A DNA stretch of 64,000 nt from a virus (Duplodnaviria > Heunggongvirae > Uroviricota > Caudoviricetes), in IMG/VR virus record IMGVR_UViG_2974594660_000001, positions 1 through 64,000 of that record; one strand, written 5' to 3'. Positions within the stretch are counted from its first letter, which is position 1; each line of letters opens with the position of its first letter. Below the pieces are notes generated by a model. It was not told the DNA's origin and made no database searches. It saw only the letters and a list, made by a program, of their open reading frames with translations. Below, piece after piece: positions 1 through 43,207 of the stretch. A program made the translations under genes and the position numbers.

Positions 1-192
1 TAAATCAGGATCAAATTCAACGTCTGGTCTATGGAAAGGTACATTAGCAGATTTACCAGCAATATTTTTTAATGTATTACCAGTGGTTTCTTCTAACATA
101 AACACACCAACTTTCTGGTGATATTTATTAATTAACCAAGCTGTTAGCTCATGTGCTAAGAGTGTCTTACCCTTGATGTTCAACAGTGGTCG
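1..192 (-). CDS. DnaB/T7 gp4-like replicative helicase domain, partial 3' exon of the primase-helicase; continues past the left edge of the window
   Basis: Reverse-strand translation reads ...RPLLNIKGKTLLAHELTAWLINKYHQKVGVFMLEETTGNTLKNIAGK.... This includes a Walker A GKT and the T7 gp4 helicase-like block KVGxxMLEE. The frame opens directly after an in-frame TAA with no start codon or RBS. Confidence 0.6.
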
Positions 193-990
193 TTAATCAC
201 TGCCCGTTCTCTTATGAACTGCTGCATATCCCTATGCAGAACAGACTATCTCTTCACCCTAATATTAGGGGTTGTGCGCTTCCATTTAAGTCTATGTTAA
301 AGACACCACTTGGCTGTACTTCGAGTTTTTATTAAACTCACCCTAGTCGTTACACCTTATCTTAATACTTGAAAATTATACATGTTTCCAAGCTCTACCA
401 ATCCTAACATCCTTAACAAAGGAGATTGTTACATTTGCAATCTCTGCGCATTCTTTTCTTGAAAATCCACGCTTTGTTAAATCTCTGACTAGTAAAACTG
501 TTTCTTCATTATATTTTGCATTGCCGTGTCTTTCTCCTTTAGGATTAAGATTATTATATTCACAATGCTTTCTGTTATCTTCACCAGTTGTCCATTCTAA
601 ATTATCAACATTATTATTTGTCCTGTCTCCATCTAAATGATTTACTTCAGGTAGATTTAGAGGATTATCAATAAAATGTTCTGCTACTAACCTGTGTATA
701 GCAAATTTCTTTGTATACTTACCAAAACTCAAAGTAACACGATAATATGGATTCTTACTGTCTGGTTTTGAATTGTCAAATTTTAAAACTCTTCCTGTTT
801 TCTTATTTCTAACAAAACCTTCAGAGCTTACTTCATAATTTTCATTTATGTTTATACTTTTATACATAGGTCTCTCCCATATGAATCAAGTATTAAGATC
901 TTGGCTCGGTATTATCTGTTCTAGACTTCCACCGAATTCACACAATTTATTTTGAGAGGATTACTCCTCAAAGGTAGCTGGTAAAAATCA
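191..990 (-). mobile_element. putative group I intron (about 0.8 kb) carrying an HNH homing endonuclease ORF and interrupting the primase-helicase gene in the helicase P-loop codons
   Basis: On the minus strand, the helicase N-terminus (which ends in a Gly-rich P-loop start) is separated from the Walker A GKT exon by 800 nt. That segment has P-like TTCGGTGG (rc of 929-936), Q-like ACCGAGCC (rc of 903-910), R-like ACGACTAGG (rc of 341-349) and S-like GATAGTCTG (rc of 241-249), in the correct P-Q-ORF-R-S order. There is also a P9-like hairpin with a GGGA tetraloop (rc of 222-239). Confidence 0.5.
376..867 (-). CDS. HNH homing endonuclease (HNH_3-type with a C-terminal helix-turn-helix-like region), intron-encoded
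   Basis: Motif EVNHLDGDRTNNNVDNLEWTTGEDNRKH (H-N-N/H core). A GGGAGAG RBS precedes the ATG. The ORF lies between the two halves of the helicase P-loop. Confidence 0.75.
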   Translation of the reverse strand: MYKSININENYEVSSEGFVRNKKTGRVLKFDNSKPDSKNPYYRVTLSFGKYTKKFAIHRLVAEHFIDNPLNLPEVNHLDGDRTNNNVDNLEWTTGEDNRKHCEYNNLNPKGERHGNAKYNEETVLLVRDLTKRGFSRKECAEIANVTISFVKDVRIGRAWKHV

Positions 991-2022
991 ACCACCCACA
1001 CCACCACCAACTGCTATCATCTCTCCATATCTAATACCATAAGTTAACTCTGTCAATCCTTTCCAAGGGTAATCCATACCCCATTCAGGTTTCTTCAGAG
1101 CATCCTCTAAACATTCAGACACTGTTGCAGATCCAGCTGGAGATTCTTTAGCTGCATTGAATCTTAAAAGATTATTAAGTTCAATACCACGTCCCTCCAT
1201 CAGCATATCATTTGCATCTTTCATAGGACTGCCGTCTTTCTTTTTACCCTTCGGTATTCTGGCAATCTTAATTCCTGGATACATTGCACGAGCTGCTGTT
1301 ACTGCTTCCTCACCTGCTTCATCATTATCCATACAGATAACAATTTCATCAAATGAATCTAAATATTTCCTACGTCTTGAAAAGGTTGTAGCAATAGATT
1401 TTGAACCATTAGGAAGAGCAACACAAGCTGGTTTGTATGTTGTTTTACCACTACTCACCAATACCTGAAAACCAGACATAGCAGATAATTCATCTTCAAA
1501 GATGAACAGTTTTCGACTGTATACATCACCTAAGATTGATTGGCTTTCACCAAAGAAGTCACATTCCCTACCATTTCCGATAGAGTAGAAATCTTTTGGA
1601 TCTAGGTTTCTAATCTTATATGCAGTGATTACACCATCTTTCTCTTTAGGATAAAAGTGTGAGATTACTTCTCTGTTTGTTGCAGATAAACCAACCCTAA
1701 CACCATACCTCTCTGCTACAGATTTACTAATACCCCTAGAGGTTAACTCCATTATTGGGAGTTCCTCTACCTCTGAAAGAACCTCTTTAAGTTCTTCAGG
1801 GGATAATTCAACCTGAACCTTTCTGATCTTTTCGTACTCTTCCTTGTTAGATTCAGTGATTTCCTCATAGTGACCACATCTATTACATGTAGCCCACTCT
1901 TCACCATTCTCTTCATTTCTCATGTGAATCAAATGGTTGCCCGTCTTATCATGCCCTCTTGAACGGCAAGTAGGACAGGCACTATCACCTAAAATTATTT
2001 TATTTCCATATGGTTTTGACAT
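988..2022 (-). CDS. DNA primase (zinc ribbon plus TOPRIM) fused to the N-terminal part of the helicase; exon 1 of a T7 gp4-like primase-helicase
   Basis: N-terminal CPTCRSRGH...CNRCGH zinc ribbon and an acidic TOPRIM-like core (FIFEDELSAMSG, CMDNDEAGEE). The C-terminus ...EMIAVGGGVGG is the beta-strand and start of a P-loop, followed by TGA. Confidence 0.75.
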   Translation of the reverse strand: MSKPYGNKIILGDSACPTCRSRGHDKTGNHLIHMRNEENGEEWATCNRCGHYEEITESNKEEYEKIRKVQVELSPEELKEVLSEVEELPIMELTSRGISKSVAERYGVRVGLSATNREVISHFYPKEKDGVITAYKIRNLDPKDFYSIGNGRECDFFGESQSILGDVYSRKLFIFEDELSAMSGFQVLVSSGKTTYKPACVALPNGSKSIATTFSRRRKYLDSFDEIVICMDNDEAGEEAVTAARAMYPGIKIARIPKGKKKDGSPMKDANDMLMEGRGIELNNLLRFNAAKESPAGSATVSECLEDALKKPEWGMDYPWKGLTELTYGIRYGEMIAVGGGVGG

Positions 2023-2043
2023 TATTTCTTCCCTGAGATTTAT

Positions 2044-2409
2044 TTAGAGGGTGAAAGGCACCCCACCACCTGTGTAGATTTCTTCTTCTTCGATATCAAA
2101 ACCTAAGTCTAATCCTAAGTCTTTGGTATATTCATATCGATTGATAATTTCTTGGGCTTCTTCTTTAGTATCAAAGAGTCCAGTTTTTGATCGAACTCCA
2201 CTTAAAATAAATACTGGAGAATATTTGATTACGAGTTCTATTTTTGATAAATTGTCTTCCTTGATCCGAAGTGGCGGAGCTCCATCCAGCCATGACACTA
2301 AAACTATCCCTTTTTTGTCAAGTGTTTTTAATACAACACCCTTCGTGCAATAACTTAGTAGATTATTATTTGAAACAACTACTGAATCACCGTTTTTAAA
2401 TAAAGACAT
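2044..2409 (-). CDS. hypothetical protein
   Basis: 121 aa ORF, co-oriented and tightly packed. Confidence 0.4.
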   Translation of the reverse strand: MSLFKNGDSVVVSNNNLLSYCTKGVVLKTLDKKGIVLVSWLDGAPPLRIKEDNLSKIELVIKYSPVFILSGVRSKTGLFDTKEEAQEIINRYEYTKDLGLDLGFDIEEEEIYTGGGVPFTL

Positions 2410-2901: not shown

Positions 2902-3474
2902 TTAAAAATCGTAATTAAAGAATCTGTGTTTATCTTTAAGTTTTTCTAAAAGAGTGTTGAAGCTGTTTTCATTCAAGATTAAACGATTTGGGTTATTTGG
3001 AATATAATTTGCTTCAAATATATCCTCACGTGGAGCTGTTACAGTTCTAAAACCAATAACTTGTCGTGATTGTGTTGATAAATCTGAACTATAAAGTCTC
3101 AATTCATTTCCATGATTTTCTTTTATAAATTTGAGATGATCCTCCATATAGCTTTTTTCATAATGGCCATGATAACCTAAGTGATCAGCTTTTAACGAGT
3201 AATAAGAACCATCATCTTTTATATTGCATCCAAAAATGTTTGTCACTTCTTTATTCACGGATGTGTCAAAAACAGTGACTGAACACCTCAAAGATTTTGC
3301 AATAAGCTCTTTCGTTATTGGGTAGTGTTTAAACATATCTTCATAACAAGAAACAAAAGATAAACACGTGCTTAGGTTATTAATTACCAAGTCAAAGTAT
3401 ATACTTGTTAGTTCATTAATATCAAGACTATCTACCCAAACATAATCTCGATTTATACCTCTTAACTGGTACAT
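2902..3474 (-). CDS. hypothetical protein
   Basis: 190 aa ORF. Confidence 0.4.
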   Translation of the reverse strand: MYQLRGINRDYVWVDSLDINELTSIYFDLVINNLSTCLSFVSCYEDMFKHYPITKELIAKSLRCSVTVFDTSVNKEVTNIFGCNIKDDGSYYSLKADHLGYHGHYEKSYMEDHLKFIKENHGNELRLYSSDLSTQSRQVIGFRTVTAPREDIFEANYIPNNPNRLILNENSFNTLLEKLKDKHRFFNYDF

Positions 3475-25093: not shown

Positions 25094-25168
25094 GGCACCC
25101 TGTACAGGATTCGAACCTGTGACCTACGATTTAGAAGATCGTTGCTCTCTCCACTGAGCTAACAAGGT
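25094..25168 (-). tRNA. tRNA-Arg (anticodon TCT)
   Basis: Cloverleaf read off the minus strand: acceptor ACCTTGT/ACAGGGT, T-arm ACAGGTTCGAATCCTGT, anticodon loop CTTCTAA, and encoded CCA. Confidence 0.75.
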
Positions 25169-25175
25169 TAATTGG

Positions 25176-25249
25176 TGGCCCTTGCTGGACTTGAACCAGC
25201 GACCAATCAGTTATGAGCTGATCGCTCTAACCATCTGAGCTAAAGGGCC
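25176..25249 (-). tRNA. tRNA-Met or tRNA-Ile2 (anticodon CAT)
   Basis: GGCCCTTTAGCTCAGATGG... with anticodon loop CTCATAA, T-arm TGGTTCAAGTCCAGC, and encoded CCA. Confidence 0.75.
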
Positions 25250-26261: not shown

Positions 26262-26276
26262 ATTATACCTTTTATC

Positions 26277-26348
26277 GCTCCGTGTAGGAATCGAACCTAC
26301 AACTATCTCTTAGGAGGAGATTATTATATCCATTTAACTAACAGAGCA
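26277..26348 (-). tRNA. tRNA-Arg (anticodon CCT), no encoded CCA
   Basis: GCTCTGT acceptor, anticodon arm ATCTC-CTCCTAA-GAGAT, T-arm GTAGGTTCGATTCCTAC. Confidence 0.6.
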
Positions 26349-43133: not shown

Positions 43134-43207
43134 AGGGGATTAGTATATTGGTATTATAATTGCCTCCAAAGCTAGAGAAGAGGGTTCGATTCCTTCATCC
43201 CCTGCCA
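43134..43207 (+). tRNA. tRNA-like gene (possibly tRNA-Trp, anticodon CCA) with an imperfect anticodon stem
   Basis: Acceptor AGGGGAT/ATCCCCT plus discriminator G and encoded CCA. T-arm GAGGGTTCGATTCCTTC. Candidate anticodon loop CTCCAAA; the anticodon stem has two mismatches. Confidence 0.5.

Follow-up and report, generated by a model that had tools for sequence, protein, structure and literature searches.

The first kilobases of the 64,000-nucleotide stretch of virus DNA analysed here (the window) carry a primase-helicase gene that is split by an HNH endonuclease gene and its flanking RNA elements, an arrangement which very probably represents a mobile and self-splicing intron of group I, phage IA type. 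Positions 1..2100 of the window match positions 1..2100 of Cronobacter phage vB_CsaP_009 (LC519601.1 / NC_048664.1) at 100%, and this phage is classified in the Grimontviridae, Privateervirus. The record NC_048664.1 is linear, and its start falls within the primase-helicase gene. On the minus strand, where all elements of the locus lie, RefSeq lists ORF02, 'primase/helicase', at 988..2022 and ORF01, 'HNH endonuclease', at 376..867, and a further 'primase/helicase', ORF140, is found at 91514..91906 on the minus strand at the far end of the record. The exons were thus entered in GenBank and RefSeq as separate fragments, and the intron was left unannotated.

The minus-strand primase open reading frame (ORF), 2022..988, encodes 344 amino acids, and its C-terminus reads ...EMIAVGGGVGG before a TGA. 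All but the last three nucleotides of this frame make up exon 1 (991..2022, last base U991), which encodes a zinc-finger and Toprim primase, a linker and the first part of the helicase as far as ...GGGVGG; the Toprim_2 domain was recognized in Pfam at 28.1 bits against a cut-off of 22.1. Downstream, a second minus-strand frame opens after a TAA, without a start codon, and reads RPLLNIKGKTLLAHEL..KVGVFMLEE. The beginning of exon 2 lies in this frame at 1..171 (GKTLLAHEL...) and contains helicase motifs H1 and H1a; the exon then leaves the window and resumes at the far end of the GenBank record. Its 5' end has neither a start codon nor a ribosome-binding site. The insertion that separates the two exons (172..990, 819 nt) begins with UGA, an in-frame stop, and ends in ...UUGAACAUCAAG, with a terminal G at 172.

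The boundaries were set by comparison with the nearest relatives, Proteus phages YP1, J3S and Privateer, in which the DNA identity of the exons was 92-98%. The matches to these phages covered just 1281 bases of the query, and each of the three encodes a single continuous primase/helicase coding sequence (CDS) of 1812 nt. A three-way alignment with J3S and Privateer placed the 819-nt insertion in the window at 990..172, between ...GTGGGTGGT and GGTAAGACA..., and the intact intron-less target sequence was present in Privateer, J3S and YP1, reading GGTGTGGGTGGTGGTAAGACAC in the first two. The joined exons (2022..991 plus 171..1 plus the remainder of exon 2 from the end of the record) amount to exactly 1812 nt and encode a protein 97.5% identical to that of Privateer and 98.7% identical to that of J3S, with the same junction, GGGVGG|GKT, after excision as in both of these phages.

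A preliminary description, made from the DNA letters, had proposed that the primase-helicase gene is split within its Walker A loop, had drawn attention to the end of the primase ORF and the startless frame downstream, both of which are present on the minus strand, and had suggested an alignment to uninterrupted gp4-like primase-helicases as a check. In that alignment the exons were collinear with the intron-less genes of J3S, Privateer and YP1. The element had been located correctly, while its span, given as 1000..178, is corrected to 990..172. The tentative start of exon 2 at AAC (180..178), with GG-NIKGKT as the product, lay 9 nt too far upstream; the exon starts at GGT (171..169), the intron ends with the nine bases AAC AUC AAG, and the Walker A sequence of the spliced product would be GGGVGGGKT.

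The joined gene fits a T7 gp4-type bifunctional primase-helicase, with an N-terminal zinc-finger/Toprim primase and a DnaB-like helicase containing Walker A. When compared with T7 gp4 structures, the joined peptide aligned without a gap through Walker A (E 5e-4; GEVIMVTSGSGMGKS), and in the helicase domain GEMIAVGGGVGGGKTLL of the joined peptide was matched to GEVIMVTSGSGMGKSTF. The Pfam DnaB_C domain was found only when the exons were joined, and it spans the junction (20.3 bits for the fragment within the window). The DnaB_C match and the gap-free gp4 alignment across the junction place the intron directly in front of the codons for the invariant Gly-Lys-Thr/Ser of Walker A.

The form in which the locus was annotated, as ORF02, ORF01 and ORF140, corresponds to a gene that is truly split, with a 344-residue primase and a separate helicase produced without splicing and a free-standing HNH gene in the spacer between them. 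Unspliced RNA would indeed yield the 344-residue primase, as the intron starts with an in-frame UGA. However, the missing start codon and ribosome-binding site of exon 2 argue against a separately translated helicase, a break between GGGVGG and GKT leaves neither piece with a Walker A loop, and relatives 98% identical in protein sequence have one fused gene. In addition, the spacer shows the covariation of a group I ribozyme, and its P1, P10, U·G pair and terminal G are correct, as described below. A truly split gene was therefore considered very improbable. Among the best 60 tblastn relatives of the protein, vB_CsaP_009 alone is interrupted, a pattern which fits a sporadic, recently acquired mobile element.

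Helicase and terminase P-loops are known intein sites, which raised the possibility of an insertion that acts at the protein level, as an intein or otherwise, or else of a group II intron. The intein was excluded on the first three bases of the insertion, an in-frame TGA; this and further stops in the exon frame bar translation through the insertion and make an intein impossible. The HNH ORF, furthermore, is free-standing, with a start codon of its own, and the Rfam matches are to group I only, with none to group II. Taken as a whole, this group of explanations has a negligible probability.

The ends of the insertion have the features expected of a group I intron. The last base of exon 1, U991, and the last base of the insertion, G172, are the two canonical group I splice-site nucleotides. 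In the P1/P10 substrate helix region (973..996), identified by reading the sequence, the 5' exon GGUGGU (996..991) and U990 pair with AGCUACC (979..973) to form P1, with a U991·G wobble at the splice site, and UUACC (984..980), directly 5' of the P1 guide strand, pairs with GGUAA of the 3' exon (171..167) to form P10. P1 was also present in a single-sequence fold of an ORF-deleted construct, and its geometry is kept in related introns in which both the exon and the guide sequences differ. The first three bases of the intron (990..988) form an in-frame UGA at which ribosomes translating exon 1 would stop before the ribozyme core.

The remaining helices follow in the order of a group I ribozyme. 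P2 is a short hairpin (956..969, GAGGA-GUAA-UCCUC). The 5' strand of P3, UUGUGUG (939..945), was paired by RNAalifold with CGCACAA (278..272), its 3' strand at 272..278. P4 and P5 occupy 906..935: P4 is formed by UCGGU (935..931) and ACCGA (910..906) and encloses the P5 hairpin (926..914). At 886..905 are the GCC strand of P6 and the 5' arm of P6a, AUCUUAAUACUUGA (899..886); the 3' arm, UCAAGUAUUAAGAU (372..359), and the GGU strand of P6 are at 353..372, and the two arms make a perfect 14-bp stem (899..886 with 372..359) that closes the loop containing the HNH ORF. The 5' strand of P7, GACUA (344..348), pairs with UAGUC (248..244), which is its 3' strand at 244..248. Between P7 and the 3' strand of P3 (P3') there are peripheral hairpins at 290..339, namely P7.1 (339..323), P7.2 (317..303) and an extra hairpin (304..290) common to the introns of YP1 and Escherichia coli phage O18-011. 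The P8 hairpin (257..270) was placed by alignment and covariance model. P9 (238..223, with a GGGA loop), P9.1 (219..206) and P9.2 (202..184) complete the structure at 184..238. Two extra hairpins, P7.1 and P7.2, in the interval from the P7 5' strand to P3' are the arrangement of phage subgroup IA (IA2-like), to which the intron is assigned provisionally by this hairpin criterion.

In group I introns the conserved P element pairs with Q in P4 and R pairs with S in P7, and ORFs are carried in peripheral loops (PMC3984707). Here P, TTCGGTGG (936..929), pairs with Q, ACCGAGCC (910..903), as P4, and R, ACGACTAGG (350..342), pairs with S, GATAGTCTG (250..242), as P7, the P7 strands GACUA and UAGUC being the cores of R and S. 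The preliminary description had listed these four strings, and they are present in the order it gave; the P9-like hairpin with a GGGA loop that it noted is P9, and the HNH ORF with its own ribosome-binding site that it assigned to the P6 region (867..376) lies in the P6a loop and is homologous to I-HmuI. Its identification of a group I intron is borne out by the Rfam matches, a custom covariance model and covariation in homologous introns, as follows.

A search with the Rfam group I models, which had been suggested as a check, gave matches to RF00028 on both flanks of the ORF: 21.2 bits (E 0.0087) on the 5' flank, 995..851, from P1 to P6, and 30.9 bits (E 1e-5) on the 3' flank, 387..222, from P7 to P9. 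Since the 492-nt ORF divides the RNA match in two, each half falls short of the gathering score; the ORF-less homologous intron of Klebsiella phage RCIP0089 scored 75.8 bits on RF00028, for which the gathering score is 50. A leave-out covariance model of the 3' half of the intron (R1) was built from seven relatives, with the window and its two closest relatives in the 3' half excluded. The only match of this model in the 64-kb window scored 118.9 bits (E 7e-34); it covers 355..172 of the minus strand and stops precisely at G172.

When the intron and its core without the ORF were used as blastn queries, hundreds of phage records proved to share portions of the core, and 10 of the introns were retrieved. 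For the analysis of covariation, the 11 introns (that of the window and the 10 retrieved relatives) were aligned with MAFFT after removal of the ORF loops. The alignment was poor at P1/P2, P6a and P7.1, which vary in length, and these helices were checked sequence by sequence and not by column counts. Without a prior structure, RNAalifold recovered P3, P4, P5, P6/P6a, P7.2, P8, P9, P9.1 and P9.2, with double compensatory changes at 28 of the 50 pairs of the consensus. When P7 was added as a pseudoknot, 97.2% of the cells were in standard pairs and 29 of 55 pairs had compensatory changes. None of 500 shuffled controls reached any of five measures (0/500), and pairing fell to 32-44% when the 3' partners were slid. 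Compensatory changes were found at five of the seven pairs of P3 and at six of the seven pairs of P9.2; P6, P6a and P7.2 also covary in the relatives, and the P7 strands are invariant and always complementary in 11 of 11 homologous introns. The intron in the window forms 54 of the 55 consensus pairs.

The ORF in the P6a loop (376..867, 492 nt, 163 amino acids) has its own start codon and a GGAG-type ribosome-binding site. Two domains were recognized in Pfam, HNH_3 (27.0 against a cut-off of 24.8) and NUMOD4 (24.4 against 23.4), and residues 9-158 of the 163, including the HNH motif, aligned with I-HmuI (PDB 1U3E; E 6.8e-12). The ORFs carried in the P6a loop by the introns of Klebsiella phage vB_Kp_Z1, O18-011, YP1 and Erwinia phage VL73 show 32-43% identity to this protein. 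The protein belongs to the I-HmuI-type HNH homing endonucleases, and on this homology it is predicted to cleave or nick DNA. In the DDBJ record LC519601.1 this ORF (376..867, minus strand) is labelled 'major capsid protein', as opposed to HNH endonuclease in RefSeq NC_048664.1, and the former is likely a mislabel in the original record. A weak hairpin at 882..862 (CAUAUGG...CCUAUG, about -5.6 kcal/mol) could occlude the start codon of the ORF and part of its ribosome-binding site, much as translation of some intron ORFs in T4 is controlled, but this is speculative. A scan of 1..2200 for promoters and terminators gave counts no higher than those in shuffled sequence and so offers no basis for proposing an internal promoter of the HNH ORF.

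Taken together, we consider it very probable that 990..172 on the minus strand is a mobile, self-splicing, phage IA-type group I intron in the gp4-like primase-helicase gene of vB_CsaP_009. In such a case the gene would be transcribed as a single pre-mRNA, in which the guide UUACC·AGCUACC would pair with the last bases of exon 1 (P1, with the U·G wobble at U991) and, as P10, with the bases at which exon 2 begins. The attack after U991 would be made by an exogenous guanosine bound at P7, and the freed 3'-OH of exon 1 would then attack after G172. Joining of the exons as ...GGU GGU|GGU AAG ACA... would restore the Walker A sequence GGGVGGGKT and a primase-helicase of 603 amino acids. By analogy with other homing systems, in a mixed infection the HNH enzyme may nick or cut the intron-less allele at these conserved codons, and repair would copy the intron into it.

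Three points weigh against this interpretation. Splicing and endonuclease activity are both predictions from the sequence. Neither RF00028 half-match reaches the 50-bit gathering score, and nothing in the window does so. Finally, the deposited exon 2 contains an in-frame TAA just beyond the window (...DPDLIY*NLKF...), at the end-to-start junction of the record, in a region that reads ...DPDLLKSEILKY... in the relatives. The TAA is at NC_048664.1 92114..92122 joined to window position 1 (3115..3123 of the rejoined stretch L004), and if it is real, the helicase is truncated whether or not the intron splices. In comparison with J3S and Privateer, five bases (ATTTA) are additional exactly where the end of the record meets its start, and five are missing approximately 20 nt further on. 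Because the total length is unchanged and the anomaly is at the ends of the contig, it is probably an artefact of assembly or linearisation.

The same TAA, and the status of splicing as a prediction, speak for an alternative in which the intron has decayed and no longer splices, the primase-helicase has become a pseudogene, and the replication machinery of the host substitutes for it. The state of the element makes this very unlikely. Every core helix is intact: 54 of the 55 pairs are formed, P7 has its invariant sequence, and P1 and P10 are undamaged. The HNH ORF is not truncated when compared with I-HmuI, and the exons encode protein with 97.5-98.7% identity to relatives that appear functional, with no other lesion. 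The TAA belongs to a +5/-5 nt anomaly that coincides exactly with the two ends of the linear record, a pattern typical of assembly joins. T7-like replication modules need their own primase-helicase, and vB_CsaP_009, which was isolated as a lytic phage, would by analogy need its own as well.

Introns of the same family were found at several sites in the retrieved set. The introns of Klebsiella phages RCIP0089 and Roth32, which lack an ORF, and of vB_Kp_Z1, which has an HNH ORF, are located at the Walker A codons of a T7-like primase-helicase (1456..1715 of stretch L007, approximately 660..930 of L010 and approximately 1470..2240 of L006, respectively), and in all three the exons are annotated as separate proteins and the intron is unannotated. 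The intron of VL73 (L005, approximately 1487..2207) is at another site in the primase-helicase gene. In YP1 (L008, approximately 1400..2182) the intron is in DNA polymerase A, at ...TFIYAFL|YGAGD..., in E. coli phage VTCCBPA_211 (L013, approximately 700..1368) it is in the DNA polymerase, and in O18-011 (L014, approximately 900..1688) it is just after the primase/helicase CDS; these last four introns are unannotated or only partly annotated. Introns of RCIP0099, RCIP0053 and Pseudoalteromonas phage H101 were also part of the set. A search of the window for a counterpart of the intron-bearing DNA polymerase of YP1 found none.

The three Klebsiella introns are like that of vB_CsaP_009 in the conserved core, P7.1/P7.2 and the 3' tail. 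They also interrupt the same host gene in the same motif, Walker A (WGAGTGV|GKT in the Klebsiella phages), and the HNH ORF of vB_Kp_Z1 is likewise in the P6a loop and is 43% identical. However, the point of insertion in the Klebsiella phages is 1 nt upstream (GGC GU|A GGU AAG, compared with GGU GGU|GGU AAG in vB_CsaP_009), and the guide is UAGCGCC instead of AGCUACC, each fitting its own exon. The phages themselves belong to different families, Autographiviridae and Grimontviridae, and the 3' half of the vB_CsaP_009 intron is nearer to those of YP1 (in the DNA polymerase, 84.8% identity) and O18-011 than to the Klebsiella introns.

Several better known systems share features with this element. 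The DNA-polymerase intron of Bacillus phage SPO1, which encodes I-HmuI, is likewise of group I, interrupts a phage gene essential for replication and has an HNH ORF of the same family, although its host gene is the DNA polymerase and the phage infects a Gram-positive host. I-HmuI is a strand-specific nickase. The DNA-polymerase introns of T7-like, G7C-like and kuravirus-like coliphages have a homologous 3' core (77-91% identity by blastn) and an HNH ORF and are likewise found in enterobacterial podophages, but in PhAPEC5/7, where the annotation is 'HNH endonuclease inducing intron mobility', and in VTCCBPA_211 the intron is in the DNA polymerase and not in the primase-helicase. The td, nrdB and sunY introns of T4 and the introns of Twort-like Staphylococcus phages, which are the classic phage IA2 introns, have the same type of architecture as that of vB_CsaP_009: P7.1/P7.2 follow P7 and precede P3', a peripheral loop carries an ORF, a stop codon occurs in frame early in the intron, and the insertion sites are conserved codons in genes for nucleotide or DNA metabolism. 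Their host genes are different. Staphylococcus phage introns were among the blastn matches to the 3' core. The endonucleases of the T4 introns are of the GIY-YIG type (I-TevI, I-TevII) or a different HNH type (I-TevIII).

Phage introns reside in protein-coding genes that are conserved, and the sites used for homing frequently span codons critical for function (PMC3984707). The element in vB_CsaP_009 is a well-known kind of selfish element at a previously unannotated site. What is mildly notable is the Walker A insertion site in a gp4-type primase-helicase, together with the near-coincident site of the same intron family in unrelated T7-like phages. In the open-access literature, papers that mention vB_CsaP_009 do not mention the intron, and no mention of an intron was found for vB_CsaP_009, Privateer-like phages or the gp4-like Walker A site; absence there is not proof that it is unpublished.

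A further reading, in two parts, is put forward tentatively and considered unlikely. In the first part, the UGA at the start of the intron would cause unspliced RNA to give the 344-residue primase and spliced RNA the full primase-helicase, with the efficiency of splicing setting the ratio of the two. T7 gp4 occurs in two forms, which is a loose parallel for primase-only and full products. In the second part, the helicase GKT codons would be a recurrent homing hotspot, across phage families, for I-HmuI-like endonucleases, as suggested by the same intron family in the unrelated T7-like Klebsiella phages, where it occupies the Walker A codons at a distance of 1 nt from the site in vB_CsaP_009.

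Elsewhere in the window, four tRNA genes were identified with Rfam RF00005 (51-71 bits), at 25096..25168, 25176..25249 and 26276..26347 on the minus strand and at 43134..43204 on the plus strand.

The understanding of group I introns is unchanged by the case of vB_CsaP_009. It does correct the annotation of an essential replication gene, which is represented in the record by two 'primase/helicase' fragments and an HNH gene, and with it the Walker A loop of gp4-type primase-helicases joins the conserved sites at which group I introns of phages are inserted. The same intron family is spread over several phage families and over different genes, primase-helicase and DNA polymerase, and is mostly unannotated. 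The HNH endonuclease could serve as a site-specific enzyme, and in mixed infections with intron-less relatives among the Proteus phages it may give the phage an edge.

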